Shown here piece after piece: positions 1 through 37,845 of a stretch of 37,845 nt of DNA; the stretch's first letter is position 1, and each line of letters begins with the position of its first letter. The position numbers were made by a program, and so were the translations under genes. The stretch is taken from the IMG/VR virus record IMGVR_UViG_2579779052_000009; one strand, given 5' to 3'. This stretch comes from a virus. Its lineage: Duplodnaviria > Heunggongvirae > Uroviricota > Caudoviricetes. Below the pieces are notes generated by a model, which saw nothing but the letters and a program-made list of their open reading frames with translations, did no database searches and was not told the origin of the DNA.

Positions 1-738
1 TCATTCACTCTCTTTCAAACCAGTTTTAACTGTTTGTGGTTTTGGGTAAGGCTGGACTTTGAATAGCTTTGTGTTAAGGCGTTTTCTGGCTCTCTTGTCC
101 AGAAACCGGATGTAACGAAACTGACGGAATTTATGAACACTGGCTCTGTCGATATTAGCCCGCAGATGTTCACCTCGCTGTCCTCCTCGTTTGATTGCAT
201 TCTTGCAAATCTCGTGATACCACTCGCCATCAAGTTCATAGAATGTTGTTTCATGACTGCCTACATAATCAAAATTGCTTGCCTGGTACACGACACCAAG
301 ACAGCCACAACGCTCATCTGCAAACGACTGAACCCACTGCACCTGCGGATAAAGTTGTCTGATTAGTTTGAGCGCGTAACTGATTGCCCTTGATTCGGAG
401 TTTCTCGGCATACAGTCATGCAGCCATAACCGGTTAAGCTCCATATATTCGCGGTTCTGCGTGCCAGTTACGACGCGTGCACCATTGTTTGGATTAAGGG
501 CATAACCCCATTGCATTACGCCAACCAGCTCCCGTTCTGAAAATATGCCCAGATGAAGGTAGGAATTATTTACGAAACGATGGCTGTAATGTTTATTGAC
601 GACGACCAGCCGGGCCAGCCAGCAACTTATTGTCTCAACCCGTAACTCACGGGAGCCATAACCGACGATATTGTCGTTATAGTGAATAAGTTCAGGCGTG
701 CTGATGATACGGGATGTAACTTGCTTTCTGTTCCCCAC
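1..738 (-). CDS. mom: DNA modification protein Mom-like (start uncertain)
   Basis: Last gene at the Mu right-end position, immediately downstream of and overlapping a Com-like zinc-finger ORF; track ORF 1..933 is an N-terminal over-extension through com; about 230 codons lie beyond the com stop, matching Mu Mom length. No in-frame ATG near the expected start, so 738 (GTG) is a guess. Confidence 0.55.
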
Positions 739-892
739 GACAGGATTTCCTTGTGTATGTGGGGTGCTCTGTGGCGCTCTGAGATGTGATTTGATTGAGG
801 GTTTTACAGCGCGGACATTTGACTTCCAGATAACTGAAGCTGGCTCGTGCCAGTAGCTTGTTACAATGTCGGCACCGTATGTTTCGATACAT
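692..892 (-). CDS. com: Com-like zinc-finger translational activator of mom
   Basis: Translation [14 protein letters not shown]...VKCPRCK...EHPT carries the CxxC...CxxC Com zinc-finger pattern recalled from Mu Com; overlaps the mom 5' end as in Mu. Start taken at the internal ATG (track ORF 692..937 starts at an upstream TTG). Confidence 0.65.
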
Positions 893-937
893 GGCCGCAT
901 AACCTCCTGCTTTGTTGTTGATATCTTTATCACTCAA

Positions 938-1148
938 TCGATCGACAAAAACGATCGATTTGATTTATTTAATTGATACAACAAATAACACGAAATGTCA
1001 TTAGCGAAAATTTATGAGTTTGATCACTAATTTTAAACGGTGCTGTAACGCATAAGTGCTGAATGATTGTACATTTGAATACCGCAAAGCAAACAAATCA
1101 ACTAATTTATAGAAGTCAATTGGTTAATTGCCAGCGTAAGAGGCTGCT
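938..1148. promoter_or_regulatory. Divergent AT-rich regulatory region upstream of com/mom with three GATC sites
   Basis: GATC at about 940, 953 and 1022, the first two inside near-palindromic TCGATCGA octamers; lies between com (-) and a divergent + ORF. Mu Pmom is known to be Dam/OxyR regulated through upstream GATC sites. Confidence 0.4.
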
Positions 1149-1442
1149 ATGGACAATCATGTAACGACGAGAAATCGAAAAATGATTGAAAATGCGGAAA
1201 TCTATAATGATTATTTTTCCGATTATTCAGATGCCTGCAAATACAGTTCGAGTGCGGGAGAGTTCATATGCTTCAACTTTTTTATTAAATCTTATGTTTT
1301 TCCTCCACAGCAAGAAGATGGAGGTGTGCCACCTCCTGAAATCACTTTGCACCGTATAGCCTCCGTCTCAATGATGGAGCAACAGGCTAATGAGCTGTAT
1401 AGCATTCTGGGAACGATTCTACAAAAGCGTGAATCGGACTAA
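1149..1442 (+). CDS. hypothetical protein (97 aa), divergent from com/mom
   Basis: ORF with AAGAGG Shine-Dalgarno about 5 nt upstream of ATG; AT-rich; no recognisable family. Confidence 0.4.
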   Translation: MDNHVTTRNRKMIENAEIYNDYFSDYSDACKYSSSAGEFICFNFFIKSYVFPPQQEDGGVPPPEITLHRIASVSMMEQQANELYSILGTILQKRESD

Positions 1443-1577
1443 TGATACCGGTTCATTTGCCTGCCCGGATGGGGAAGCAGGATTGACTGCTCCATAAGCA
1501 GCTATATTTCTGAATACGAAATACTATCCAGCGATTACATATGGCTGGATAGCGGCAAAGATGTTTTCATTAGTGTC

Positions 1578-1603
1578 AAACCGGCAGAGGACACCACCGG
1601 TTT
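1578..1603. terminator. weak hairpin between convergent genes
   Basis: AAACCGG / CCGGTTT 7-bp inverted repeat with 12-nt loop between the + 97-aa ORF and the - 84-aa ORF; U-tract poor. Confidence 0.25.
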
Positions 1604-1609
1604 GTATTG

Positions 1610-1864
1610 TTACATCATGGTACTGTCAGTTCCGGGCTGAGCCGGGTCTGGTTGCTCTGGCTGCGCGTCGGTTTTCGGCTCATTATCAGCATCACTGGCC
1701 GCAACTGCTGGCCCAATAAGTTTTGCCAGCACTTCATCAACGTAAGTGTCGATTTGTGCCTCAAAATCCTTGCGGACCTGCGCTTTCAGTAATTTATTTA
1801 CTTCACCGGAATACAGTGCCTGTTTTACCAGGACTTCAGTGACGGTGCCTTTAATCTCTGGCAT
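1610..1864 (-). CDS. hypothetical protein (84 aa) with acidic Pro-rich C-terminus
   Basis: Canonical AGGAGG Shine-Dalgarno 6 nt upstream of ATG at 1864; no family assignment. Confidence 0.55.
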   Translation of the reverse strand: MPEIKGTVTEVLVKQALYSGEVNKLLKAQVRKDFEAQIDTYVDEVLAKLIGPAVAASDADNEPKTDAQPEQPDPAQPGTDSTMM

Positions 1865-1899
1865 GTATATCCTCCTTATGTGGGAATACAGCCCTGCAA

Positions 1900-2082
1900 T
1901 CAGGGCTGGGTCGGGTCTTTTGGGAGCGGAGTTGCCTGCGCTGTTTTACTGAGCTTTTCAGCTGCTGCGTCATCAATTTTGCGGCGAACATAATTTCTGA
2001 TGGCCTTATAACCACCGCTCACCAGATATAACGCACTGACCACAGTGCAGAAATAAAGCAGCATCGTATGAACAAATGTCAT
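1900..2082 (-). CDS. small single-pass membrane protein (60 aa)
   Basis: N-terminal hydrophobic helix LLYFCTVVSALYLVSGGY followed by charged tail; AAGG Shine-Dalgarno upstream of ATG. Confidence 0.4.
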   Translation of the reverse strand: MTFVHTMLLYFCTVVSALYLVSGGYKAIRNYVRRKIDDAAAEKLSKTAQATPLPKDPTQP

Positions 2083-2197
2083 ATAACCTTACCTTTGATA
2101 TTGACTACAGAAACAGTTTTCAGCTAAAAAGTAACCGCGTACATAATGGTCTTCTTTGTCAGAGGTTGTAGCTTTCCTTAATGGGTTTGGAATATCA

Positions 2198-2240
2198 CCC
2201 GCCAGTCAACAAATGGCTCTTTGACCGGCGGGATTTTTTT
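2198..2240. terminator. GC-rich hairpin with T-tract just downstream of the esterase gene
   Basis: CCCGCCAGTCAA ... TTGACCGGCGGG (11/12 complementary) followed by ATTTTTTTAT on +; A-tract on the other side, so possibly bidirectional. Confidence 0.4.
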
Positions 2241-2247
2241 ATCCTGC

Positions 2248-4302
2248 TTACGCGTTATTCACTTCCACCACGATACTGTCAATCAGTACCGGGTAAGTCG
2301 CATTTTTAGTGATATCGGTCACGCGCAACTTGTCTGCCGTAAACGTGCCGACCGGAGACTGCGACAGCATGAATGGTGTCCCGTCCTTACCATCAATGAC
2401 CGGCGTCACCTCAATACTGTTGTTACCGGCAAAACGGAAGCCCAGCGTATGCCATTCGTTATTAAATGCGCCGAATGACCCCAGCTTCGTGTTCTGCGCC
2501 GTGTTTCCTTTGTGATACATCACGTTAAGGTCTGTGGCATCGCTCTGTACGTAGAACGATGCCAGCAGGTTATGACCGGCATTTCCTTCCAGAGTAACCC
2601 CTTGCGGCAGGGCAGAAACCGGCCAGTACAGCGCCAGTGCGTACTGATTAGCCGTAAGCGCGCCATCGAGTTTAAAACGACAACTGACAAGACCACCTTT
2701 ACCCAGCAGGTCCGCACCATTACCAGCATCATGCTCAAGGTACCAGGGGGCTCTTCCTGTTTCCTTGGTCAGTTTCATTGCCTTACCCCCGCTGGCTCCG
2801 GCATCATCCACGATTTGAGCCTTGCCACCTCCGGCAGCCCAACCCTGTGGTGTCAACCGTCCTTCAGACTCAGATGCCCGGTAAGCAAATAGCGTACTCA
2901 TCGTCGTGGTGTCTGCGGGTGGCGTGGACGGTTTTGATGGTGTATCAGGTGACGGCTTCTCATCCGGTGGTGTCACGGTCTGCCCGCGCATCAGTTCAGC
3001 CGTGCGCCCTGCATGGAGCATAATAGCTGAGGCCAGACGGTCTGAAATGACGCCCCTGCGTGCCCATGAGCTGAAATGGCTGTCACGCTGTGTCGAAACA
3101 AAACTGCCCTGGGTTCGGGATGCTGCACCGTAATACCCGACAGCCACAATATCCGGGTCTTCCGCCGGAGCATTCGTTGGCGTGCTCTGTCCATTCTCAT
3201 CCGTCAGGAACGGTACAAAGAAAATTTTCTGTGCTTCCTTGCCTTTGTAGCCACCGTATACTGCCTCATATTTATCGGTGCCAGCGTTTTTCCAGTAATA
3301 CGTGGTATCACCGCAAATCCACGGCACCGTGGTGGCATTTCCACTCACGCACTGCGCAGCAAGCGGAGCCAGGTCAGTTCTGAACTGCTGAACCATGGCC
3401 GTGAATAAACTATTATGCTGCTGGCTTCCTGAGGCAAGGTCTGCCTCTCCCTGCATCCAGACCACAGCCAGAAGTTTGTTTTTCGGGTTTTTCGCCAGCG
3501 CGACTTTGGTGCGGCTTACCAGGTCCTGATACAGAGGTTTACCGGCCCCCCAGCGTGAAGAATCAGCGGAAGCACCGCTGGCCTCACTGAATGAGCCGTC
3601 GGCTCCAGTGGTGAATGCTGACCCGCCACGACAACAGGGCACCAGAAGTATCCCCGCATTCTGTGGGATATAGGGAAGCAGTTTTTTGGCAATATGCAAC
3701 CCCTGACCGACAGTCCCGTACTGGCCTTTTGCCAGATCAGCTTTCGGGTGGTTTATCCCGCTCATATCCTGAACATCATGCAGGCAGTGGTCTGCCGGAA
3801 TGATGTCGTTGTATGTACACGACGTACCGTTGGGCGTTACCGTACTGCGGCGTGCCAGTTGCTTAATGCGTGGGTCCGGGCGGTCAAACGAATCCGGTAA
3901 CGGCAGCCCCTCGCCGTAGGCCATGCCATTTGACTGACCCGCGAGAATGACAACAAAGTAATATTCCGGCTCTGAACTGCTGCCATTCGTGCTACCGGAA
4001 GGCCCGGCGTTATCCGGTGCATTCCAGTCGGAGGGCGTGAGCGTTCCGGCCACGTCAGATGTGATTGGAATGATGCCAGTCACGCCTGAACTGGTGATTT
4101 CTGCACTGGGATTACCGGATACCGGCATTACCCATAATGGCTCTTTCGTGCTGAAGCGGATCACGCAGTCTGCGAAGGTGATCCCCCCTTTATTACCCGA
4201 AGGGCGGAAAGGGCTTTCAATAAATGCCACCGTGCCACCGGCAACCTTGACTGAAAACTCTCCGGGCATGGCGGAGAGCATTTTCCACTTGGAGTCTGAC
4301 AT
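2248..4302 (-). CDS. SASA/SGNH-type carbohydrate O-acetylesterase, multidomain (NanS-p-like)
   Basis: Central block YYFVVILAGQSNGMAYGEG resembles the GQSN catalytic-serine motif of sialate O-acetylesterase (SASA) domains; Ser/Gly- and Pro/Thr-rich linkers separate an N-terminal domain and a beta-rich C-terminal domain. Sits where the G segment and gin would be in Mu. Confidence 0.65.
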   Translation of the reverse strand: MSDSKWKMLSAMPGEFSVKVAGGTVAFIESPFRPSGNKGGITFADCVIRFSTKEPLWVMPVSGNPSAEITSSGVTGIIPITSDVAGTLTPSDWNAPDNAGPSGSTNGSSSEPEYYFVVILAGQSNGMAYGEGLPLPDSFDRPDPRIKQLARRSTVTPNGTSCTYNDIIPADHCLHDVQDMSGINHPKADLAKGQYGTVGQGLHIAKKLLPYIPQNAGILLVPCCRGGSAFTTGADGSFSEASGASADSSRWGAGKPLYQDLVSRTKVALAKNPKNKLLAVVWMQGEADLASGSQQHNSLFTAMVQQFRTDLAPLAAQCVSGNATTVPWICGDTTYYWKNAGTDKYEAVYGGYKGKEAQKIFFVPFLTDENGQSTPTNAPAEDPDIVAVGYYGAASRTQGSFVSTQRDSHFSSWARRGVISDRLASAIMLHAGRTAELMRGQTVTPPDEKPSPDTPSKPSTPPADTTTMSTLFAYRASESEGRLTPQGWAAGGGKAQIVDDAGASGGKAMKLTKETGRAPWYLEHDAGNGADLLGKGGLVSCRFKLDGALTANQYALALYWPVSALPQGVTLEGNAGHNLLASFYVQSDATDLNVMYHKGNTAQNTKLGSFGAFNNEWHTLGFRFAGNNSIEVTPVIDGKDGTPFMLSQSPVGTFTADKLRVTDITKNATYPVLIDSIVVEVNNA

Positions 4303-4606
4303 CGTCTTTTCTGCCTGTTTCTGAATTAAACAGAGTCAGAATAACAACCGCTGATAAATATGTGTTTTGCGGAAATTCAAAAAAAGCATCACGGTACTTT
4401 TTGTGACGGAGCCGGTTAGGCAGGAACATAACGACAAAGGATGGACAGGCCAATACGATAACCGCATATTACCGGCTTATAATTGATTTGACGATTCATG
4501 ACGCTGCGGTCAGCATCTGAAAATATGCGTTATTTCAGAAACCCCTTGCCTGTATATGGCGATATTATTATTCCTGTTTTTATCATTGATTTACATGGTG
4601 ATGTTT

Positions 4607-5128
4607 ATGCAACTGATTAATGTTAAACGATATTACCCGGAACAAAAACCCTTTGGTAATGATGTACAGTATTTTCAAAGTGAAGATGGTAAGGATTTCT
4701 ATGAGTCCCTGCCATTATTCACCAAAAAATATAAACTTTGCATAACCCCTGACAGCGGTGTTATCTGCTCAATATCACAGGATGCTTCGGCGCTGTATCC
4801 TGCGGGTTTTTCCGTTGTTGAGACAGACGAATTACCTGAAGGTACTGATATTTCAGGTAACTGGAAGTTTGATAATGGTGTCATCTCACAACTCCCGGTT
4901 AACTATACCAAAAAAGCGGAAGCACTGCGCCAGTCATATCTTAATCAGGCATATGAAAAGATTAATGACTGGAGAACTGAGTTACAGCTGGGCACGATTA
5001 GTGATGAAAACAGAGCTGCGCTTACACGATGGATGAAATACATCAGTCAGGTGAAAAAAATGGAACTACCAGCGATTAAAAACAAAGCTGAATTTGACGC
5101 CATTAAATGGCCGGAGAAGCCTGAATAA
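4607..5128 (+). CDS. tail fibre assembly chaperone (Tfa/U-like), opposite orientation to the tail fibre gene
   Basis: Tfa-like C-terminal region (RWMKYISQVKKMELP...WPEKPE); start moved to the internal ATG (MQLINVKRYYPEQ), because the track start adds a hydrophobic leader; convergent with the tail fibre gene. Confidence 0.55.
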   Translation: MQLINVKRYYPEQKPFGNDVQYFQSEDGKDFYESLPLFTKKYKLCITPDSGVICSISQDASALYPAGFSVVETDELPEGTDISGNWKFDNGVISQLPVNYTKKAEALRQSYLNQAYEKINDWRTELQLGTISDENRAALTRWMKYISQVKKMELPAIKNKAEFDAIKWPEKPE

Positions 5129-5131
5129 CAT

Positions 5132-5160
5132 AAAGGGTGCTTATCGCACCCTTTTCCTTT
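5132..5160. terminator. bidirectional intrinsic terminator between convergent tfa and tail fibre genes
   Basis: AAAGGGTGC ttatc GCACCCTTT perfect hairpin followed by TCCTTT; A-rich on the other side. Confidence 0.55.
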
Positions 5161-5162
5161 AA

Positions 5163-6074
5163 TCAGACGGATGAAACTGTGCGCCAGGCATTACCGATAT
5201 ATATCTGCACCGGACGGTAATAAACGCCTCCGATATTATCGGCTGAACTTTTCCCGGTATCCTGCACGTTAATGCCTGAAAGCATACAACCAGAAGGTGC
5301 ACCATAACTCCAGGACATTTCATTACCTCCGGGTGAATGGTAACTCTGGGCACCAAGCTGAACGTTGCTAACGTATTTGTTATCAGCAGTAGCTTCAGTC
5401 ATACCGGAGGTAATGTATATGTCCTGCGTCCCGTCAAAAGGAACGCCATTAATATTTCTTGGGGTGGAGAGTTTATTCGCGGCAACGGCGGTGCCGTCCG
5501 ATGGCAGAGCATTCGCCGCCTTATTCACCGTTTCCCGTAAACCGACGTTATCGATAAAAGCCCCTTTATCCGGAATGTCTGCGCCGTTCTGCTCCCTGCG
5601 CAGGTAACGGTTATCACCTTCGCTTTTGCTGTAAACATCCAGATTATTACGGGCGGTTCCCTTATTCTCCAGGTCGGCGAGATTCTGATCCTTCGCCAGG
5701 GCATTAACGTCACCGGGACCAAGACTGTTTTTTGTGGCAAGTGTCCCCAGACCAAGATAACCACGGGCCAGACGCTGGGCCTCCGCACCGGCATCAGCAA
5801 TTTCTTTCAGGTTATTTTTCCGGGAAAAGGCATTCGCAGCGATAATGGCTTTAATGGACAGCGTAAGCTGGTTTAACTGCGCCTTATCCGGCTGAATACT
5901 GGCTTCAGCCAGAATATTCAGCAGTTCGGCCTGGAGAATATTCAGCCAGTCCTGACCAATCCAGCTGATACCTTTTTGTCCGTCACCTTCGGTAAACCAG
6001 GTGGTGGTATTACTCTGCGCCGGTGCCAGCGCAGGCATATTCGCCACGCCGGAATTATTATCAACATGAAACAT
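5163..6074 (-). CDS. tail fibre protein (S-like)
   Basis: Position after the baseplate genes; Gly/Asn/Ala-rich sequence with a phage tail-fibre-like repeat region (DNRYLRREQNGADIPDKGAFIDNVGL). Confidence 0.6.
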   Translation of the reverse strand: MFHVDNNSGVANMPALAPAQSNTTTWFTEGDGQKGISWIGQDWLNILQAELLNILAEASIQPDKAQLNQLTLSIKAIIAANAFSRKNNLKEIADAGAEAQRLARGYLGLGTLATKNSLGPGDVNALAKDQNLADLENKGTARNNLDVYSKSEGDNRYLRREQNGADIPDKGAFIDNVGLRETVNKAANALPSDGTAVAANKLSTPRNINGVPFDGTQDIYITSGMTEATADNKYVSNVQLGAQSYHSPGGNEMSWSYGAPSGCMLSGINVQDTGKSSADNIGGVYYRPVQIYIGNAWRTVSSV

Positions 6075-6634
6075 TAAATAGTCTCCTCTTCATGGCTGTT
6101 TGCATAAACGTAAATAAACGTCTGCCATGCAGGCTTATAACGGTTCAGAATACATTCCAGCGCACCGCCTTCATAAATACGCAGCGGCGTGAGAATATCA
6201 TCCAGCACATTCATATTCCGGTAGCCGGTTTCACTGTTAATCGTGACAATACTGACCCACTGCGAATCCGGTGAGGGCTGAATGTCAATCTGATAACCAA
6301 ACTCCGCCGCAAACCGGATATAAAATTCACGGTTCAGCGAGGGCTTCATCCGGTATTTATTGCCGGCATAACGCTGTCGCTCCGTGAGGGTGGCTCCGGC
6401 CATATCACACTCGGGAAGCCCGAGATAACGCTCCCAGTCTTCCAGCAGCAGGCGCGACGTGTCAGGGAAACGCTCGGCAAGCAGCTGTTTACCCGTCCAG
6501 GATACACGCGCTGTCGAATGACTGAGGCCCAGACATAATGATGCCAGTACGGATGACGGACGCTTGTCCCATGCCAGCCCGTCAGGCAGTAACTGCAACA
6601 GGGCGCGCTGATGTGGGGTCAGGGTTACAGCCAT
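6074..6634 (-). CDS. tail/baseplate protein, Mu gp48-like
   Basis: Position between baseplate J and tail fibre; 186 aa; overlapping start/stop with neighbours. Confidence 0.55.
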   Translation of the reverse strand: MAVTLTPHQRALLQLLPDGLAWDKRPSSVLASLCLGLSHSTARVSWTGKQLLAERFPDTSRLLLEDWERYLGLPECDMAGATLTERQRYAGNKYRMKPSLNREFYIRFAAEFGYQIDIQPSPDSQWVSIVTINSETGYRNMNVLDDILTPLRIYEGGALECILNRYKPAWQTFIYVYANSHEEETI

Positions 6635-7707
6635 GTGATTTCTCCTACCGTCAGCAGCTCACTGTCTCCCGCCTGAACTGACGTCAGCGGACTGCGCACT
6701 TCAAAATCCTCCAGATTTTTCACCCCTGCCACCGCCCGCCAGAAAGACGACGGCAGAACCAGACCGCCGGGCCGGGATTCGTTGTATAACAGGTCGGTCA
6801 GCGCCTGTTTTACGGCCGCCTGATTCTCCGGTGTTTTCGGGATGATCCTGATGCTGAAGGGCACCGGCTTATTGGTCAGTTTAAACACGGTCACCGTCGG
6901 CCCCAGAGGCTGTCCGACAGGCTGGCCGGTCGCCGGATCATCATGACTGCGGATATAATCCGCCACCCGCTGAACATCACCGTCACCGGGGAAAATATCC
7001 GGGTTATTATCCTGAACAAACGTTACCCCCACGCTGCCCGCCTGCGGCCATTCCGGGCGGCACCATGCCCGCGTCACGCCCGGCACTTCACGCGCCCAGC
7101 GTTCAAAATCATACTGCGTGCCGCCGGACGGTGGATTCTGCACCCGGAAAACCAGACGGGAAAGCAGCTCCGGCACGGTTTCCACATCCGCACCACCGGT
7201 GATCCCCGTTCCGGTCACCGTGGCCGTCTGGTTGATCCCCGCCTGCGGTGTGATAAATGTCAGTTTTGTCCCTGCCGGGGCATTCCCCGCACGACCGGCA
7301 CTTTCGGCTTCCACACTGACATTCAGCGTACCGGCCTTACCGGTCAGTGAGGTGGTGATACGGTAAACCACGCCATCACTTCGCTGGAGAAGCACACCTT
7401 CCTTGATCCCCGCATCCGTGGTCAGCATCAGCTGAACCGGCCCGTCCCCCCGAGAGGCAGGCTTACGCATGACGCCCCAGAATGCACAGTGTTTCAGCAG
7501 TTCGGCTTCATCGGCTTCGGTCGGGATGATCTGACGCGCAATCCAGGCCAGATGCTCATGCTCCTGAGCAGATAACCCTGCCTGAGCGTAAGCAATGGCA
7601 TTCAGGGTGGTTTCATTCACACCCGGCTGCGAGCCGGGCAGGCGCTGGCTGATATCCTGCTGTGTCTGCGTGATTAACTGTGCCAGCGGTAAAGGCTGAT
7701 AAGGCAT
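6625..7707 (-). CDS. baseplate J-like protein (Mu gp47-like)
   Basis: 360 aa, position and length typical of baseplate J family in Mu-like tails. Confidence 0.7.
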   Translation of the reverse strand: MPYQPLPLAQLITQTQQDISQRLPGSQPGVNETTLNAIAYAQAGLSAQEHEHLAWIARQIIPTEADEAELLKHCAFWGVMRKPASRGDGPVQLMLTTDAGIKEGVLLQRSDGVVYRITTSLTGKAGTLNVSVEAESAGRAGNAPAGTKLTFITPQAGINQTATVTGTGITGGADVETVPELLSRLVFRVQNPPSGGTQYDFERWAREVPGVTRAWCRPEWPQAGSVGVTFVQDNNPDIFPGDGDVQRVADYIRSHDDPATGQPVGQPLGPTVTVFKLTNKPVPFSIRIIPKTPENQAAVKQALTDLLYNESRPGGLVLPSSFWRAVAGVKNLEDFEVRSPLTSVQAGDSELLTVGEITWL

Positions 7708-27708: not shown

Positions 27709-28131
27709 TCAGAAAAGCCGTGGCTGCGTGCGTTCCTGATGCAGGCGACGCTGGTTGCGGATAACGGAGTAAATCTGCGTCTCTGACATCTGGTAGTGGC
27801 GGCGCAGGGTTTCAATTTTTTCGCCCTGGCTCCAGCGGGAAAAAATTTCATTATTGCGCAGTTCGGTGAAAAGGGATTCACCGACCGGGAGATAATAACC
27901 ACGCCCGCCCATGTACCCGGCCTGTGCGGCTGCAACCTTACGGGCAAGCATTCCCGCCTGAGCAGGTTCAATCCCCTGACGGTGCAGTTCAGCACTGATC
28001 ACATCAACCAGGTCCCGCAGCGTGCCGGGCCAGTTCTTTTTCAGCTCATCATCAGGAATATCATCCAGACGGTCAATCAGCGCGTGCAGCTGTTCGCTGT
28101 CACCAAACATGCTCATCTGTGTTTCAGCCAT
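27709..28131 (-). CDS. Mor/C-family late transcription activator
   Basis: 140 aa; C-terminal half (SRWSQGEKIETLRRHYQMSETQIYSVIRNQRR) resembles the Mor/C DNA-binding region as recalled; located between gemA and lys as in Mu. Confidence 0.65.
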   Translation of the reverse strand: MAETQMSMFGDSEQLHALIDRLDDIPDDELKKNWPGTLRDLVDVISAELHRQGIEPAQAGMLARKVAAAQAGYMGGRGYYLPVGESLFTELRNNEIFSRWSQGEKIETLRRHYQMSETQIYSVIRNQRRLHQERTQPRLF

Positions 28132-28201: not shown

Positions 28202-28714
28202 TTAAAAGGGGGAGGATTCTTCATACAGCCTGCAAACGCGCTCATAACTCATCACTGTACGCGCTGACATCCCCAGCACATCCAGCATCTTGCGGCGGTG
28301 CCAGCGTTTGAGACGCTCCAGCACATCAGAGGCCAGCGCGGGGTGTTGTTCCAGCCACTGCCAGTTAGCCACACCTTCGCCGCCGTTCTGAGCGGCCGTC
28401 TGCGATTTCACCCAGCGGTTAAGGGCTGTTTCCCCGCCATCAGAGATAAAGCCCTGCCGGTGCATCACCTTCCAGATGGCGCGAATTTTGGCGGTCACCG
28501 TACCCGGTTTTAAGGCCCGGTTAACCGGCTTCTGACGCACTTTAAAACCGCGTTTTTTGAAAACATCCAGCACGCGGGATAACTCATCCGGTGACATATC
28601 CCGGCAACTGGGTTTGCCGGTGGCTGCCAGTAGTACGGATGTGTAGGTCTCATGGTCAAGCTGTAGATCGCGTTTTGCGACATGTATTAAGGTAATCAGG
28701 GAAGCGCGATTCAT
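28202..28714 (-). CDS. gemA: GemA/gp16-like regulatory protein
   Basis: 170 aa at the gemA position immediately upstream of the Mor/C gene. Confidence 0.6.
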   Translation of the reverse strand: MNRASLITLIHVAKRDLQLDHETYTSVLLAATGKPSCRDMSPDELSRVLDVFKKRGFKVRQKPVNRALKPGTVTAKIRAIWKVMHRQGFISDGGETALNRWVKSQTAAQNGGEGVANWQWLEQHPALASDVLERLKRWHRRKMLDVLGMSARTVMSYERVCRLYEESSPF

Positions 28715-28778
28715 TATCGTGTCTCCGTAACAACAGGCGGCATGGCAACGCCGCCCGGATAAAACTAAAGGTATCGAT

Positions 28779-29189
28779 ATGAAAATAGATTACGATGAAG
28801 TATTAAGTATTCTCACAACTTTTCAGGATGCTGAAACACCTTTCCTTACACTACAGGATCTGGGCATGGCTGAGGCAGAAGGAGAGGAAAAGGATAAAAA
28901 AGTTTTTCATCTTATGCTTCTCGCTGATAATGGCTCAATTGTTAATGGTGATATGCGGTCAGAAACACCAAAATATATTGGTTTCTTTTTTCATTCTCTG
29001 GGCGTTGGTTTCAGAAACACGCCCATTATGCTTACTCAGCAGGGGCATGATTTAGCTAACGCCCTGAGAAAAAAACCAATCCTTGAAAGAATCAAAAAGG
29101 AGTTTACAGACGCGCCATTTGATCTAATCAAAGAAGTTACCAAATCAATGTTAACCAGGTTCGTCAAAGAACGTATTGGGATTGACTAA
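28779..29189 (+). CDS. hypothetical protein (136 aa), AT-rich opposite-strand insertion in the early region
   Basis: Only + strand gene inside the - strand early operon; markedly AT-rich codon usage; AAGG Shine-Dalgarno before ATG; no family assignment. Confidence 0.5.
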   Translation: MKIDYDEVLSILTTFQDAETPFLTLQDLGMAEAEGEEKDKKVFHLMLLADNGSIVNGDMRSETPKYIGFFFHSLGVGFRNTPIMLTQQGHDLANALRKKPILERIKKEFTDAPFDLIKEVTKSMLTRFVKERIGID

Positions 29190-29459
29190 ACAACTTAATT
29201 CAGCCAGTAATCGCAGGGCGGCGACAGCCGCCTGCTTGTCACTTCTTTTAGCTATTTCCGCAAGGGTATGCACAATCCATAACGGACTTAACGCTACGGC
29301 TGAATCCAGAATCATGTCATCCATAATAATTTCTGGCATATCCCGCTTGTCACATTCTTTATCCATAAAAGAAACGAATTTTTCAGCATCTTCCGGTTTC
29401 ATCCCTCCGGCGATAAGGATTTTGCGATATTCATAAGACGATCTTAATTCAATACTCAT
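29151..29459 (-). CDS. hypothetical early protein (102 aa)
   Basis: AGGTGA Shine-Dalgarno 4 nt upstream of ATG; 3' end overlaps the 3' end of the + strand gene. Confidence 0.45.
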   Translation of the reverse strand: MSIELRSSYEYRKILIAGGMKPEDAEKFVSFMDKECDKRDMPEIIMDDMILDSAVALSPLWIVHTLAEIAKRSDKQAAVAALRLLAELSCLVNPNTFFDEPG

Positions 29460-31896: not shown

Positions 31897-32427
31897 TTAT
31901 TTATTCAGTCCGGCGTCCTGTTCAAAAGGCTCGACATAAAAACTTTCAGCGCCTTTATTCACCTTGATACCGGCAATGCCTTTCACAGCATCCGGCTCCG
32001 CCAGGACGGCTTCCTTGTTCACTTCCTCTTTCGTGCGGATGAAACGCTCAAGCCCCATACGGCGCAGCATTTCAATCACACCTTCCACATCACGGCTGAC
32101 GCTGCATGATGGCGTTCCCAGCCGCCATGACACCGTTCCGGTGGTCAGATTGGCTGTTTTGGTTTTGCCGCCGTTCGTCAGCTCATCACGGTTGGTTTTG
32201 CACCAGTCCTGAATCCCTTTAAAAAGCACTTTGATTTGCTTTTTAAGATTTTCAATCTGCGGCGTATAACGGGCGGTGATTTCTGCCACTTCGTCATTCA
32301 TCGCCGTTTCCAGGCGCAGCGCCTCTCGCTGAATATCTCCCAGGGTGCGGATATCACGGCTGACTTCTTCCCGGGTCTGCGGTGCCGCCTCGGCTGCGGC
32401 CTTTAATTTTGTAACGCGTTTAGCCAT
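31897..32427 (-). CDS. gam: host-nuclease inhibitor Gam
   Basis: Translation (LETAMNDEVAEIT..., NRDELTNGGKTKTANLTTGTVSWR, RFIRTKEEVNKEA, PFEQDAGL) closely tracks Mu Gam as recalled; 176 aa. Confidence 0.8.
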   Translation of the reverse strand: MAKRVTKLKAAAEAAPQTREEVSRDIRTLGDIQREALRLETAMNDEVAEITARYTPQIENLKKQIKVLFKGIQDWCKTNRDELTNGGKTKTANLTTGTVSWRLGTPSCSVSRDVEGVIEMLRRMGLERFIRTKEEVNKEAVLAEPDAVKGIAGIKVNKGAESFYVEPFEQDAGLNK

Positions 32428-33555: not shown

Positions 33556-33783
33556 TTAGCTGACTTGTTTCGCACCAACAGAACGGCATATTCCGCTGTA
33601 AACTTCTGTCGCACCTTCGCGATCAAGTCCGGCAGATATCACCATTCGTGTGCGGTCATTAAATTCAAAAAGTAAATCGCCACATTCTTTATTTTCGGCC
33701 AGTGAAATCACCTTCACGTTATCGAAATTAACCAGGTAAAAGCGTCCGTAAATATCAGGAATATTAAATACCGCCATAATCAC
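33556..33783 (-). CDS. small protein at the Mu kil position
   Basis: 75 aa immediately downstream of B, overlapping its stop; assignment is positional only. Confidence 0.4.
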   Translation of the reverse strand: MIMAVFNIPDIYGRFYLVNFDNVKVISLAENKECGDLLFEFNDRTRMVISAGLDREGATEVYSGICRSVGAKQVS

Positions 33784-34721
33784 ACCTGTGAGAGTAATTC
33801 AGGGTTGGTATAAACCTCTTTAAAGGCCGCATTAATATGTTTTTCTGTCAGCGCCGCGCCTTCACCGCTGGCGGTGAGCCACGCCTGGTTAAGCGTATGT
33901 GTCAGAACGCGTAACGCTCCCGGCTTTTCAGCGATAGCCTGCATGACGGCCAGCTCAGCCTCACCACTGATCCCCCACGCCATGGCAATGGCCAGCACAT
34001 CCGCCTTTTTGGCCTTGCGAAGTTGTTTTGTACGGGCAAGACGGCTGAACAGGCGCGATAAATCATCAAAGGCGCGGCGTCCACCTTTAAACAATCCGCG
34101 CGGGTTACCAATAAGCACCATCCCGATCCCCGAGGCGTCCTGAATTGCCCGGAGTTGCTCCAGACCGTCAATACCAAGATGATCCGCCTCATCCACAATC
34201 ACCAGTCCACGCGTTCCCATCAGGCGACGGCGGATGGCGCGGGATAATGCCCCTTTGTTCGCGCGGGTGTAATCAATCCCCAGCGCATCGGCCAGCTCCA
34301 GCAGACACTCCGTGACGCTGGAGTGCGCGGGTGACAGGGTGATCATCCAGGTGTTTGGTTGCTCCTGGCAGTAATTACGGGCAGTGGCCGTTTTACCCAC
34401 ACCCGGTACGCCCACAATAACGTTAATACAGCCCATCAGGCGAACCGCCTGAAACAGTGCGCGCAGCTCCTGGACTGTCTGAGTTTCCACAAACTGCGGC
34501 GGTTCCGGCAGTGCGCTTTGTTTATTCCAGTTCTCATACCAGGAGCGCAGGGAAGCAGCCACAGCAGCGTTATCGCCTTTATATTTTCCCTTACGGAAAG
34601 CCGATAATGTGCCGTCGGAAATTCCCGCCTCTCTGGCGATGGCATACTGCGTCAGTACGCCGCCATCAATAAGTTCATCAATGGTCTTGATTACATCGTT
34701 AATATCGGTCATATTATTCAC
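33780..34721 (-). CDS. B: transposition ATPase B (AAA+)
   Basis: Walker A GVPGVGKT and Walker B-like LVIVDEAD; N-terminal HTH-like segment; directly downstream of the transposase. Confidence 0.8.
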   Translation of the reverse strand: MNNMTDINDVIKTIDELIDGGVLTQYAIAREAGISDGTLSAFRKGKYKGDNAAVAASLRSWYENWNKQSALPEPPQFVETQTVQELRALFQAVRLMGCINVIVGVPGVGKTATARNYCQEQPNTWMITLSPAHSSVTECLLELADALGIDYTRANKGALSRAIRRRLMGTRGLVIVDEADHLGIDGLEQLRAIQDASGIGMVLIGNPRGLFKGGRRAFDDLSRLFSRLARTKQLRKAKKADVLAIAMAWGISGEAELAVMQAIAEKPGALRVLTHTLNQAWLTASGEGAALTEKHINAAFKEVYTNPELLSQV

Positions 34722-34794: not shown

Positions 34795-36882
34795 TCAGGC
34801 CAGCGGATCACTTTCTTTTAATTTCGCTTCGAGCAGTTGCAATCCCCGCTGGAAATTACGCTCGTATTCTTCATCAGGTTCATCGTCAGCGACCGGTTGC
34901 TGAACGGTCACCGTATTACCCACAGGGCGGTATATGTTTTCCAGCCAGGGCTCCTGCGGCTTGTGCTCCAGCACGTTGACAACCTCATCCTCGGCATCAC
35001 GGATTTTTTCCTCTGCGCGTTTACGCATGCCTTTAAGGCGCTGCTGCTGTTTGTAGTATTCCGCGCTGACAGGGAAGGCTTCGCGTTTATTGCCGTCCCA
35101 TACCGCCTCGCAAATCACGCTGCCATCCGGGCGGCGCACGGTAATTCGTTCGGCATCATGAATGTCATAGCTGATAAGTACCTTACGGCCATGCTCGTCA
35201 CGCAGCTCGGGCGCGTAGTAAATATTATTCAGCCAGCGTATTTCACAGCGTCTTACAGGGCGCTCCACCATCGGCCGGAACATATCCCGCAGTTCAACAT
35301 CGGACAGCCATTCAATTTCCGTGTCCTCTTCCGCCAGGCGTTTTTTTCTGAACTCCGCCGGGCTGTAATGTTTACCGTTCGGCTTCATGGGTAATTCATC
35401 GTGCGGCCGGTTGTTGTACCACTCAACACCGTCACGAATGGCATCAATCAGTTCAGACCAGGACGGTAAATCACGCATCGCTGACTGCTGCCGGGCGTTC
35501 AGCCGTTTGCCCTGTTGCAGGGCACTGAATGCCGAGCGTAAATCGCGGTTGGTTTTACGTAACGTCTCGCGATCTGCTCCTTTCCCGAAATAGGTGCGGT
35601 ATTTACGGGCTATGCGCATCGGTAATGTGCGGTTAAGCCGTTCGATAATGCCCCGTCCCTGCGGATTACCGGCAATCCCTGTCGGGTGATTAATCCCCAG
35701 TCGTGGCAGTATCCCCACAATCTCCTTATCCAGGACGTCGGCGGTTTCCCCGGAGCCATTATCCGAGTAATACAGAAACGGTTTGCCATGATGGCGAATA
35801 CCGTGCTGTATGGCACCGGCTACGGCGAAAACATTTTCAGCCAGGTCAAGGCTCCAGCCCACCACAAAGCGCGTGCCACCGTCGATAACAAAGGTCACTT
35901 CCGGTGCGAATGGCCGCCCGTGAACCGGGTGCGCGCATTTCAGCTTCATGCCGTGACCGTCACCAATCCAGACATAATTCACCGGCATTCTGGACCAGTC
36001 GCGGCGCGTGAATCCCTCAAGCTGACGGTATTCACTGCCAGTTACCCGGCCTTTTTGTTTCACCACTTCCGGCAGTTTCTTCATTGCGCGGCGAATGGTG
36101 TCATAAGAGGGCATGATATCGAGCATATAAGGCTCATCAGCGTGCCGGTGCTGCCATTCAGCAACAAAATCCTCGTAAGCCTCGGTCATTGGTCGGCCGT
36201 TTGACTGGCGATGCTGCGCCAGAAATTCGGGCAGCCAGTTAATATCTTCGGCTTTTATTTCCTGGCGTTTACCCGGTGCCAGTAAAAGCAGGCGTTCAGC
36301 GGCGTTCTGTGCCTTGTTAAAGGCCGCAATCCAGCGTTTCAGCGTGATTTCACTCAACGCACGGCTGTTTCCCTTTTTGGCGTTCGCCGTCTCAACCATT
36401 GCCACAATGCGCTCGTCCAGTTGCGAACGTGCCAGGTTGTCAACGATAAACCGGATAGCCTTCGCACAGCTGAAACCAGGTTGTTGCGCGACTTTCAGAA
36501 CTTCGCTGACGATCGCGATTCGTGCATCAGCCACCTGGCGCTGGTTTTCAGTCAGGGCATTGAGGCGTTCGACCATCAGTTGTGGTGATCCGCGATATGC
36601 CTCCACCGCATCAACCACGGCAGACGAGCGTCTGGCCTTTGTCACCACCGGAGCCGGTGATTCATCGGCTTTTTGCGTCATCAGTTGCAGGGCATAACGT
36701 TCGCGTAATGCCTGCTGTGTCACTTCAGGTAAACAGTCAATGCTGTATTCAAAACCTTTAGCGCCTTTCTTGCGGCGTCTGCTGGTTTCGCTGGTTGCAT
36801 ACTTCCTGATTGAATAGCGAACGCCTTGCTCCGTTCCCGGCATCCCCGGTAATCCAACCAGTTCTTTGACTGAAGCAAACAT
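34795..36882 (-). CDS. A: Mu-type DDE transposase A
   Basis: 695 aa, downstream of ner and upstream of B. Confidence 0.8.
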   Translation of the reverse strand: MFASVKELVGLPGMPGTEQGVRYSIRKYATSETSRRRKKGAKGFEYSIDCLPEVTQQALRERYALQLMTQKADESPAPVVTKARRSSAVVDAVEAYRGSPQLMVERLNALTENQRQVADARIAIVSEVLKVAQQPGFSCAKAIRFIVDNLARSQLDERIVAMVETANAKKGNSRALSEITLKRWIAAFNKAQNAAERLLLLAPGKRQEIKAEDINWLPEFLAQHRQSNGRPMTEAYEDFVAEWQHRHADEPYMLDIMPSYDTIRRAMKKLPEVVKQKGRVTGSEYRQLEGFTRRDWSRMPVNYVWIGDGHGMKLKCAHPVHGRPFAPEVTFVIDGGTRFVVGWSLDLAENVFAVAGAIQHGIRHHGKPFLYYSDNGSGETADVLDKEIVGILPRLGINHPTGIAGNPQGRGIIERLNRTLPMRIARKYRTYFGKGADRETLRKTNRDLRSAFSALQQGKRLNARQQSAMRDLPSWSELIDAIRDGVEWYNNRPHDELPMKPNGKHYSPAEFRKKRLAEEDTEIEWLSDVELRDMFRPMVERPVRRCEIRWLNNIYYAPELRDEHGRKVLISYDIHDAERITVRRPDGSVICEAVWDGNKREAFPVSAEYYKQQQRLKGMRKRAEEKIRDAEDEVVNVLEHKPQEPWLENIYRPVGNTVTVQQPVADDEPDEEYERNFQRGLQLLEAKLKESDPLA

Positions 36883-37299: not shown

Positions 37300-37845
37300 A
37301 TGAACAAGCAAACAACAACATCTCTTTCTTTTCCTGGTGGTAGAAAAGAAAGCATTGCTGAGCGTCTGAAAAGGCTGATTGGCTCCCGCAGCGTCAGAGC
37401 TGCAGCAAGAGATTGGGGGCTTTCATTTTCAACACTAAACAATTATCTGTCTCGTGGCACTGAGCCATCCTTAAGTGTCGCCCTTCAGATTGCGTCTATC
37501 GAAGGAGTAAGTGTTGAGTGGCTATGTGGATTCAGTGATGCATCACAAGTGAATCGGTGTGAGATCAAGGAAAATCAAGATGAAAGCAAGAAGATAATTA
37601 TGACGATTATCAGCGCACTTGATGAAAAAGACTTAGAGCAGCTATCGAAAAATTTGGTTCTGAATGGAGCCAAGTACTTAGCTCGGTTGTTAGAGCCTGA
37701 AAATCAAGATCTAATCCGCTTAGAAGGAAGGAAAAGAATAGCTGCATTACAGCTTGAAGGTATGTCTGACGAACGCGTCAGAGAGATTTTGGAAGAAACT
37801 GAGAGAAGTCGCAAATCTAACGCGGTAGAACCAAAAGCGGGTTAA
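37300..37845 (+). CDS. prophage repressor, CI-type HTH
   Basis: N-terminal HTH-like segment (RAAARDWGLSFSTLNNYLSRGTEPSLSVALQIASIEGVSVEWL); transcribed divergently from ner-A-B; AT-rich. Confidence 0.65.
   Translation: MNKQTTTSLSFPGGRKESIAERLKRLIGSRSVRAAARDWGLSFSTLNNYLSRGTEPSLSVALQIASIEGVSVEWLCGFSDASQVNRCEIKENQDESKKIIMTIISALDEKDLEQLSKNLVLNGAKYLARLLEPENQDLIRLEGRKRIAALQLEGMSDERVREILEETERSRKSNAVEPKAG

Follow-up and report, generated by a model that had tools for sequence, protein, structure and literature searches.

Phage morons and lysogeny-expressed exclusion genes are familiar from lambda (rexAB, sieB, and bor) and from P22, where sieA lies beside mnt. In lambda, rexAB is the effector of the lysogen and ren is the lytic-phase gene that frees the phage from its own system. 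The Pseudomonas Mu-like phage Fc02 has small genes in its early/immunity region, olg1 and gene 10, that overlap on opposite strands, and the gene on the repressor strand yields a transcript in the lysogen, as established by strand-specific RNA-seq, and excludes other phages (PMC9936078); with this phage, exclusion genes on the repressor strand have a Mu-like precedent. Some of the cassettes of Vibrio chromosomal integrons encode phage defense (bioRxiv 10.1101/2024.07.02.601719; 10.64898/2026.03.17.712381), and the texts and supplements of these two reports that were searched contain no mention of DUF2513, the family to which the gene described here is assigned.

The locus that we compare with these systems lies in a stretch of 37,845 nucleotides (the window), the whole of which is a Mu-like prophage read in reverse. 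The Mu transposase (34795-36882), MuB (33780-34721), Gam (31897-32427), a Gp11-like gene, gemA (gp16; 28202-28714; PF06252, E 2.8e-28), Mor (27709-28131), and a lysozyme gene are all encoded on the - strand. The c-repressor position is taken by a 181-aa gene on the + strand (37300-37845) whose match to HTH_3 is weak; its equivalent in a near-identical E. coli prophage, as annotated in RefSeq, diverges from a ner-like HTH gene. At the far end of the prophage, past the tail-fiber genes, a 684-aa protein (2248-4302, - strand) with a sialate O-acetylesterase-type SASA domain and DUF6645 is NanS-p-like, resembling the esterases of Stx prophages. A tail-fiber assembly gene (Caudo_TAP; 4556-5128, + strand) is encoded on the other strand from the tail genes, an arrangement like that left by a Mu G-type inversion; an invertible segment at that position was rejected because no inverted repeats were found in positions 1-7000.

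The gene under study, hereafter the DUF2513-like gene, occupies 28779-29189 on the + strand and encodes 136 aa from an ATG start to a TAA stop. A Shine-Dalgarno-like AAAGG, read from the sequence, is located 7 nt 5' of the ATG (28767-28771, + strand), and the N-terminus, MKIDYDE, fits the family consensus MKIDxxY, which supports the start codon as correct. The divergent left neighbor of the gene is gemA, and on its right it converges with o102 (29151-29459, - strand), which encodes a 102-aa phrog_1988 protein (E 8e-38) and is co-oriented with the early (lytic) operon. The sequence-only reading of this DNA had described 28779-29189 as the sole + strand gene of the early region, as more AT-rich than its neighbors, and as overlapping a - strand gene convergently at its 3' end. 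A survey of ORFs bears out the first description, since all other + strand ORFs of at least 90 aa between 27.1 and 37.2 kb are nested in longer - strand genes and 28779-29189 is therefore the only free-standing + strand ORF there. The overlap is likewise present and amounts to 39 nt (29151-29189, by ORF coordinates) in which the 3' ends of both genes are coded on the two strands, so that a terminator could not fit between the genes. The description of base composition is accurate on the left, where gemA has a GC content of 55.4% compared with 38.4% for the ORF (window, 53.8%), but not on the right, where o102 (41.7%) and o130 (43.5%) are AT-rich too. The reading frame is conserved as well, with no interruption in any of the six complete genomes or the seven viral contigs that carry it. 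Values of dN/dS were 0.05 to 0.2 for pairs with measurable dS, including 0.05 for the window ORF against locus L002. With 251 family representatives, a structural model at a pLDDT of 97, and this dN/dS range, 28779-29189 is confirmed as a real gene and not a chance ORF.

No family had been recognized in the sequence-only reading, which proved wrong. The ORF matches phrog_585 (E 1e-17) and, over residues 2 to 111 and profile positions 1 to 96 of 100, Pfam PF10711 (DUF2513; E 8.5e-5), and the protein at the same locus is named a DUF2513 domain-containing protein in RefSeq. The PF10711 score of the window protein, 23.3 bits, does not reach the gathering cutoff of 29.6 bits; 77 of the 102 aligned relatives match PF10711, with a best E of 9e-15, and precomputed PF10711 matches exist on many relatives. 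On the basis of these profile matches, the window protein is a member of the DUF2513 family through intermediate sequences, and phrog_585 is a DUF2513 subfamily. An exhaustive profile search yielded the 251 family representatives at 50% clustering, nearly all of 125 to 150 aa, and no extra domains were found in the longer members. PF10711, the related YjcQ family (PF09639), and phrog_585 share the length class and the winged-helix core of the window protein, and the phrog_585 subfamily is distinguished from PF10711 by three additional C-terminal helices. Membership in DUF2513 says nothing about mechanism, because the family is without known function; the literature searched yielded nothing on the function of DUF2513 and nothing useful on YjcQ. 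Sequence searches of solved structures with profiles of the DUF2513-like and o102 families gave nothing significant, NCBIfam gave no match for the ORF or o102, and no model of PADLOC-DB 2.0 matched the ORF, o102, or o130 at E values up to 1.

An AlphaFold model generated from the 102-sequence alignment had a pLDDT of 97.2 and replaced a four-sequence model with a pLDDT of 64. According to this high-confidence model, the protein is a winged helix, with an acidic domain at residues 1 to 86 and three C-terminal helices. The model places helices at residues 5 to 17 and 35 to 50 and has a four-stranded wing that ends in the family motif P-x-R-L-T-x-x-G-H-D-F and leads into the three helices. The structure-based homology search proposed along with the sequence-only reading was negative at the threshold applied, in that Foldseek comparison of the ORF model with PDB and BFVD returned no match at E ≤0.001. 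The closest folds are MarR, PadR, TubR, and HxlR, all DNA-binding regulators, at identities of 13 to 19%, and neither the ORF nor its relatives have a Pfam MarR or PadR match. The winged-helix fold is thus common to the window protein and these regulators, but the family differs from them in its acidic recognition helix and in a wing that is long, variable, and rich in indels. The mean net charge of the family is -4, that of the "recognition" helix (residues 35-50) is -2.45, and positions 37 to 39 are more than 60% Asp/Glu; such an acidic helix argues against classical operator binding. The best-conserved polar residues of the family are His44, Arg84, His90, and Asp91. At residue 84 (codon 29028-29030) the window protein has Met, the sole Met among the 102 sequences, in place of the Arg of 98 of the 102 relatives, and Met84 is found throughout the E. 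coli/Shigella cluster (P0001, with 91 member sequences), so this lineage possibly functions differently or not at all.

The distribution of the gene is patchy. Among 5,426 complete E. coli genomes, the segment was present in 6 (98.4-98.7% identity), and approximately 220 had the flanking Mu-like genes without it. A GemA-anchored sample of 76 loci contained the DUF2513-like gene in 14 and o102 in 28, with carriers and non-carriers intermixed inside each GemA clade. In the O157 Sp18-type Mu-like prophages (alignment A2; annotations of L003 and L004), the segment 28715-29210 (end approximate) has no homolog, its place being taken by unrelated DNA in which there are two small ORFs on the - strand, and the o102 homolog differs in its C-terminal tail. 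Relatives in the GenBank phage collection were limited to two Klebsiella phages (29-31% identity), and a scan of the genome collection gave a single locus, from Edwardsiella. Truncated or frameshifted copies also occur (P0004, 89 aa; L014). In 29 of 29 loci, the GC content of the gene was below that of both its left and its right 3-kb flank, by a mean of 8 points. We conclude that the gene is accessory cargo, with the patchy presence and deviant base composition of a moron.

The site next to gemA has a history of its own. Approximately 30 Mu-like viral contigs have a relative of 45 to 54% identity beside gemA in the same divergent position, and in these contigs GemA is 46 to 67%, Mor 26 to 69%, and MuB 48 to 76% identical. 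The gene is therefore old at the gemA site, its 45 to 54% relatives adjoining GemA proteins of 46 to 67% identity. A recent lone insertion was considered and rejected, because synteny with gemA extends to phages with neighbors only 26 to 76% identical and because the gene is part of a two-gene cassette. In L039 and L046, the DUF2513-like gene is positioned between mor and gemA. Some non-carriers have in its stead an AT-rich 79-aa gene, phrog_32893, 70 nt upstream of gemA and on the opposite strand (- relative to gemA; L053, 2191-2430; L058, 1138-1377; L076, 2193-2432; also L060 and L062). Since phrog_32893 occupies the same spot, the site, which is anchored by gemA, is a hotspot at which the cargo faces backward. 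The further long ORFs on the opposite strand upstream of gemA in phages lacking the DUF2513-like gene belong to no family and have the look of shadow ORFs, and only phrog_32893 was accepted as alternative cargo.

Searches with an iterated o102 profile revealed a convergent o102-like gene directly after the DUF2513-like gene in nearly all loci, with weak members in L005 and L046. The two genes overlap by 30 to 39 nt in the Mu-like loci and are separated by a 3-nt gap in the baseplate loci. The pair is also found in L042, where the region is immI-like, and in L040 and L043-45, where it lies within the baseplate operon of a myovirus; in that operon, the V-like and W-like genes overlap by 4 nt in 19 relatives, and a 787-nt insert with both genes is present only in L138 and L139. 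The same orientation rule applies in two unrelated operons, Mu early and baseplate: o102 runs with the lytic genes and the DUF2513-like gene runs against them. These loci show that the DUF2513-like gene and o102 form a mobile convergent two-gene cassette. Either gene is also found alone, the O157 Sp18-type prophages keeping only o102, and a strict effector-antidote dependence is therefore not required. No Pfam, NCBIfam, PADLOC, or PDB relative of o102 was found; its N-terminal part weakly resembles RuvA domain III (E 0.06), which is the best solved-structure match and a lead only. Alignment A5 shows two conserved motifs in o102/phrog_1988, L-I-A-G-G-[MY] toward the N-terminus and A-A-V-A-A-L toward the C-terminus. 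As a separate observation on the myovirus that carries the pair, a second backward-facing ORF of 132 aa without a family lies between the baseplate hub and V-like genes (L044, 7138-7536, + strand, equivalent to L138, 1053-1451, - strand) and is absent from the 19 related phages.

The settings of single copies and distant relatives are more varied. In L029, a relative of 47% identity begins 76 nt past the gene for a CI-type repressor (HTH_3 plus Peptidase_S24) and shares its strand, and in L028 and L042 the relative follows, in the same orientation, an Arc/Mnt-like repressor gene from which an antirepressor gene (Bro-N/Ant) diverges. A lambdoid Klebsiella phage has its relative between the lysis genes and the terminase. 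Canonical intrinsic terminators are located just past the stop codon in L006, L028, and L029, and L006 has an extended -10. The loci L028, L029, and L030, which represent three different phage contexts, have in common an upstream region of approximately 75 nt (~5925-6000) that opens with a GGCGC-n5-GCGCC hairpin and bounds the single-gene cassette form on its left. Distant relatives (21-29% identical) are found in small chromosomal islets. Relatives of 27 to 29% identity in Vibrio harveyi and V. parahaemolyticus are single-gene cassettes of chromosomal integron arrays with attC-like repeats: the L135 gene (5001-5423) is flanked by repeats at 4848-4998 and 5419-5569, and L136 (5001-5435) is arranged in the same way. 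The two arrays contain 12 to 16 repeat copies, and the neighbors are YafO, Phd/ParE, and acetyltransferase cassettes. The Vibrio relatives are integron cassettes in the accepted sense, with one ORF between attC sites in a co-oriented array; no attC-like repeats were found at the window copy. The presence of the gene as lone cargo in such different carriers makes a regulator of one phage's operators unlikely.

We also inspected the sequences that might govern transcription of the pair. No convincing sigma-70-like promoter was found upstream of the gene on the + strand, either by scanning or by eye in several lineages. Several Mu-like relatives have only approximately 30 nt between the start codons of the two divergent genes, and any promoter must therefore lie, unrecognized, inside gemA. 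In the window the start codons of gemA and the DUF2513-like gene are 64 nt apart, and between them a GC-rich hairpin (GGCGGC-n8-GCCGCC; 28736-28755; - strand fold -20.4 kcal/mol, z -2.0) is followed on the - strand by UGUUGUU and then by the gemA ribosome-binding site. A hairpin occupies the same position in L005, L016 (5932-6000), L017, and L023; that of L016 has a U6 tail, and the U-rich tract after it reads UCUUUUUU in L016, L017, and L023. Some lineages with approximately 30 nt between the start codons have no hairpin before gemA. With its U-rich tract, the pre-gemA hairpin looks like a putative terminator or attenuator that would separate the early genes from gemA-mor. A second hairpin with a GGCGGC-GACA-GCCGCC core (29214-29235, + strand) lies inside o102, 25 nt past the stop codon of the DUF2513-like gene, with a T-rich stretch after it. 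This candidate + strand terminator is weak (fold -17.7 kcal/mol, z -1.5) and is conserved in the Mu-like loci, and the evidence for it is ambiguous because the hairpin also encodes the conserved AAVAAL motif of o102. Between lineages the arms differ by synonymous changes that are paired, reading G/C in the window, A/T in the O157 type, and G/T in L037, with L016 showing a mismatch; these changes may reflect either a selected RNA structure or a by-product of the Ala codons. Rfam identified no RNA family anywhere in the window.

The placement of the gene suggests a self-contained job that is done in the dormant phage. We assign a probability of roughly 40% to a reading in which it is a cargo gene expressed in the lysogen, against the lytic direction, with o102 as its lytic-phase partner; the timing, the silencing, the target, and the role of o102 are what we infer in this scheme. 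The DUF2513-like gene would be transcribed independently, against the lytic operon and in the direction of the repressor, so that its protein would be present in the lysogen. The protein would serve the cell in a self-contained manner, most plausibly by interfering with incoming phages or other invading DNA, protection being the most plausible function because of the slots that the gene occupies, and it would bind a protein or nucleic acid target and not a specific operator. Upon induction, early transcription would run through o102 and then antisense over the entire DUF2513-like gene to reach gemA and mor. This passage would silence the gene by convergent transcription and RNA pairing, and the same transcription would make o102 as a lytic-phase partner or antidote. 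Weighing against this scheme are the lack of a recognizable promoter and of a PADLOC match, the silence of the literature searched on DUF2513, the Met84 of this lineage, and the nearest folds, which all belong to DNA-binding regulators. The sequence-only reading had already seen in the gene a lysogeny-expressed moron, possibly for defense. The moron part agrees with its accessory nature, its AT-richness, its anti-lytic orientation, and its relatives behind repressors, but the remainder is not supported, no PADLOC match and no sigma-70-like promoter having been found. Because no PADLOC model matches, a role in exclusion, abortive infection, or defense is still a guess. A sharper version, in which the protein would be an unrecognized single-protein effector against phages or DNA with prophages and integron cassettes as its carriers, o102 the antidote made by the phage for its lytic phase, and the overlap a toggle between lysogeny and lysis, is in our estimation rather unlikely.

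An alternative use of the same position is regulation of the phage itself, in which either the protein or the convergent transcription would damp early read-through into gemA-mor, giving less leaky middle/late expression in the lysogen or setting the timing of the early-to-middle switch. The matching folds belong to the DNA-binding MarR, PadR, TubR, and HxlR proteins, the position before gemA-mor is conserved across Mu-like phages, a terminator-like - strand hairpin directly precedes the gemA ribosome-binding site, and the gene occurs in immunity regions beside CI and Arc/Mnt genes. Such a regulator would, however, be absent from 62 of the 76 GemA-bearing phages and would have to be reconciled with an acidic recognition helix, with the lack of any inverted-repeat operator that we noticed, and with cargo in settings as unrelated as a baseplate operon, Vibrio integron cassettes, and the gap that separates lysis genes from the terminase. 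We consider this explanation quite unlikely. We hold the same opinion of expression in the lytic phase, for example from a promoter that depends on a Mor- or C-type activator, which would make the product a host-takeover or counter-defense protein. The anti-operon orientation in two independent settings would bring such expression into head-on collision with strong transcription, relatives are co-oriented with lysogeny repressors, and integron cassettes benefit the cell and not the phage. In favor of lytic-phase expression are the lack of a constitutive-looking promoter, the proximity to mor, the small acidic nature of the protein, which is shared by many phage inhibitors of host proteins, and the fact that accessory hotspots of phages hold counter-defense as well as defense genes.

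The tight convergent pairing, with its 39-nt overlap and its movement as a unit, and the location of the integron relatives among toxin-antitoxin cassettes could also be explained by an addiction-type or toxin-antidote pair that stabilizes the prophage and is cross-regulated via the overlapping 3' ends. Neither protein matches a toxin or antitoxin family in Pfam, NCBIfam, or PADLOC, however, both genes are solitary in many genomes, and classic protein toxin-antitoxin pairs are co-directional operons, whereas this pair is convergent; we regard the proposal as very unlikely. Finally, the copy in the E. coli/Shigella lineage could be a decaying passenger with no present function. Met84 in place of a near-invariant Arg, the truncated or frameshifted copies (P0004, 89 aa; L014), and the rarity of the gene in E. 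coli speak for such decay, but the frame is intact in six complete genomes and seven viral contigs and dN/dS is 0.05 against L002, which makes this the least credible proposal, with hardly any probability.

Whichever of these readings holds, enterobacterial Mu-like phages have a hotspot for cargo upstream of gemA. The DUF2513 family is widespread, has no known function and no study in the literature searched, and its context is now testable: it is portable cargo in the slots that temperate phages use for lysogen-expressed genes and is also found in integron cassettes. If the pair does consist of an effector and an antidote made by the phage, it would be a new small defense/counter-defense pair with the convergent overlap as a switch between lysogeny and lysis, and Mu-like prophages with o102 only, such as those of the O157 Sp18 type, would carry an orphan countermeasure. 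If the gene instead regulates the gemA-mor junction, it would bear on the timing of middle transcription in Mu-like phages.

Compared with morons of the rexAB, sieB, sieA, and bor type, the DUF2513-like gene has the same patchy presence, deviant composition, and orientation against or independent of the lytic operon, and its relatives extend the likeness through their slot directly behind repressors and, in single copies, their own terminators. The window protein has no sequence or fold relation to those morons and is soluble-looking and cytoplasmic, unlike the membrane proteins SieA, SieB, and RexB. The olg1 and gene 10 pair of Fc02 differs from the window pair in lying beside the repressor and not gemA and in encoding different proteins of 7.9 kDa without homology to it, and the window copy differs from the Vibrio integron cassettes in being prophage-borne and paired with o102. 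The proposed logic resembles that of rexAB and ren, with which the DUF2513/o102 pair would share expression in opposite phases, as implied by its orientation rule; the two systems have no homology, and the genes of the present pair, unlike rexAB and ren, are joined, convergent, overlapping, and co-mobile. What is new here is that the gene is paired convergently with phrog_1988 and moves with it, the orientation of the two following a fixed rule; otherwise the gene is prophage cargo as known.
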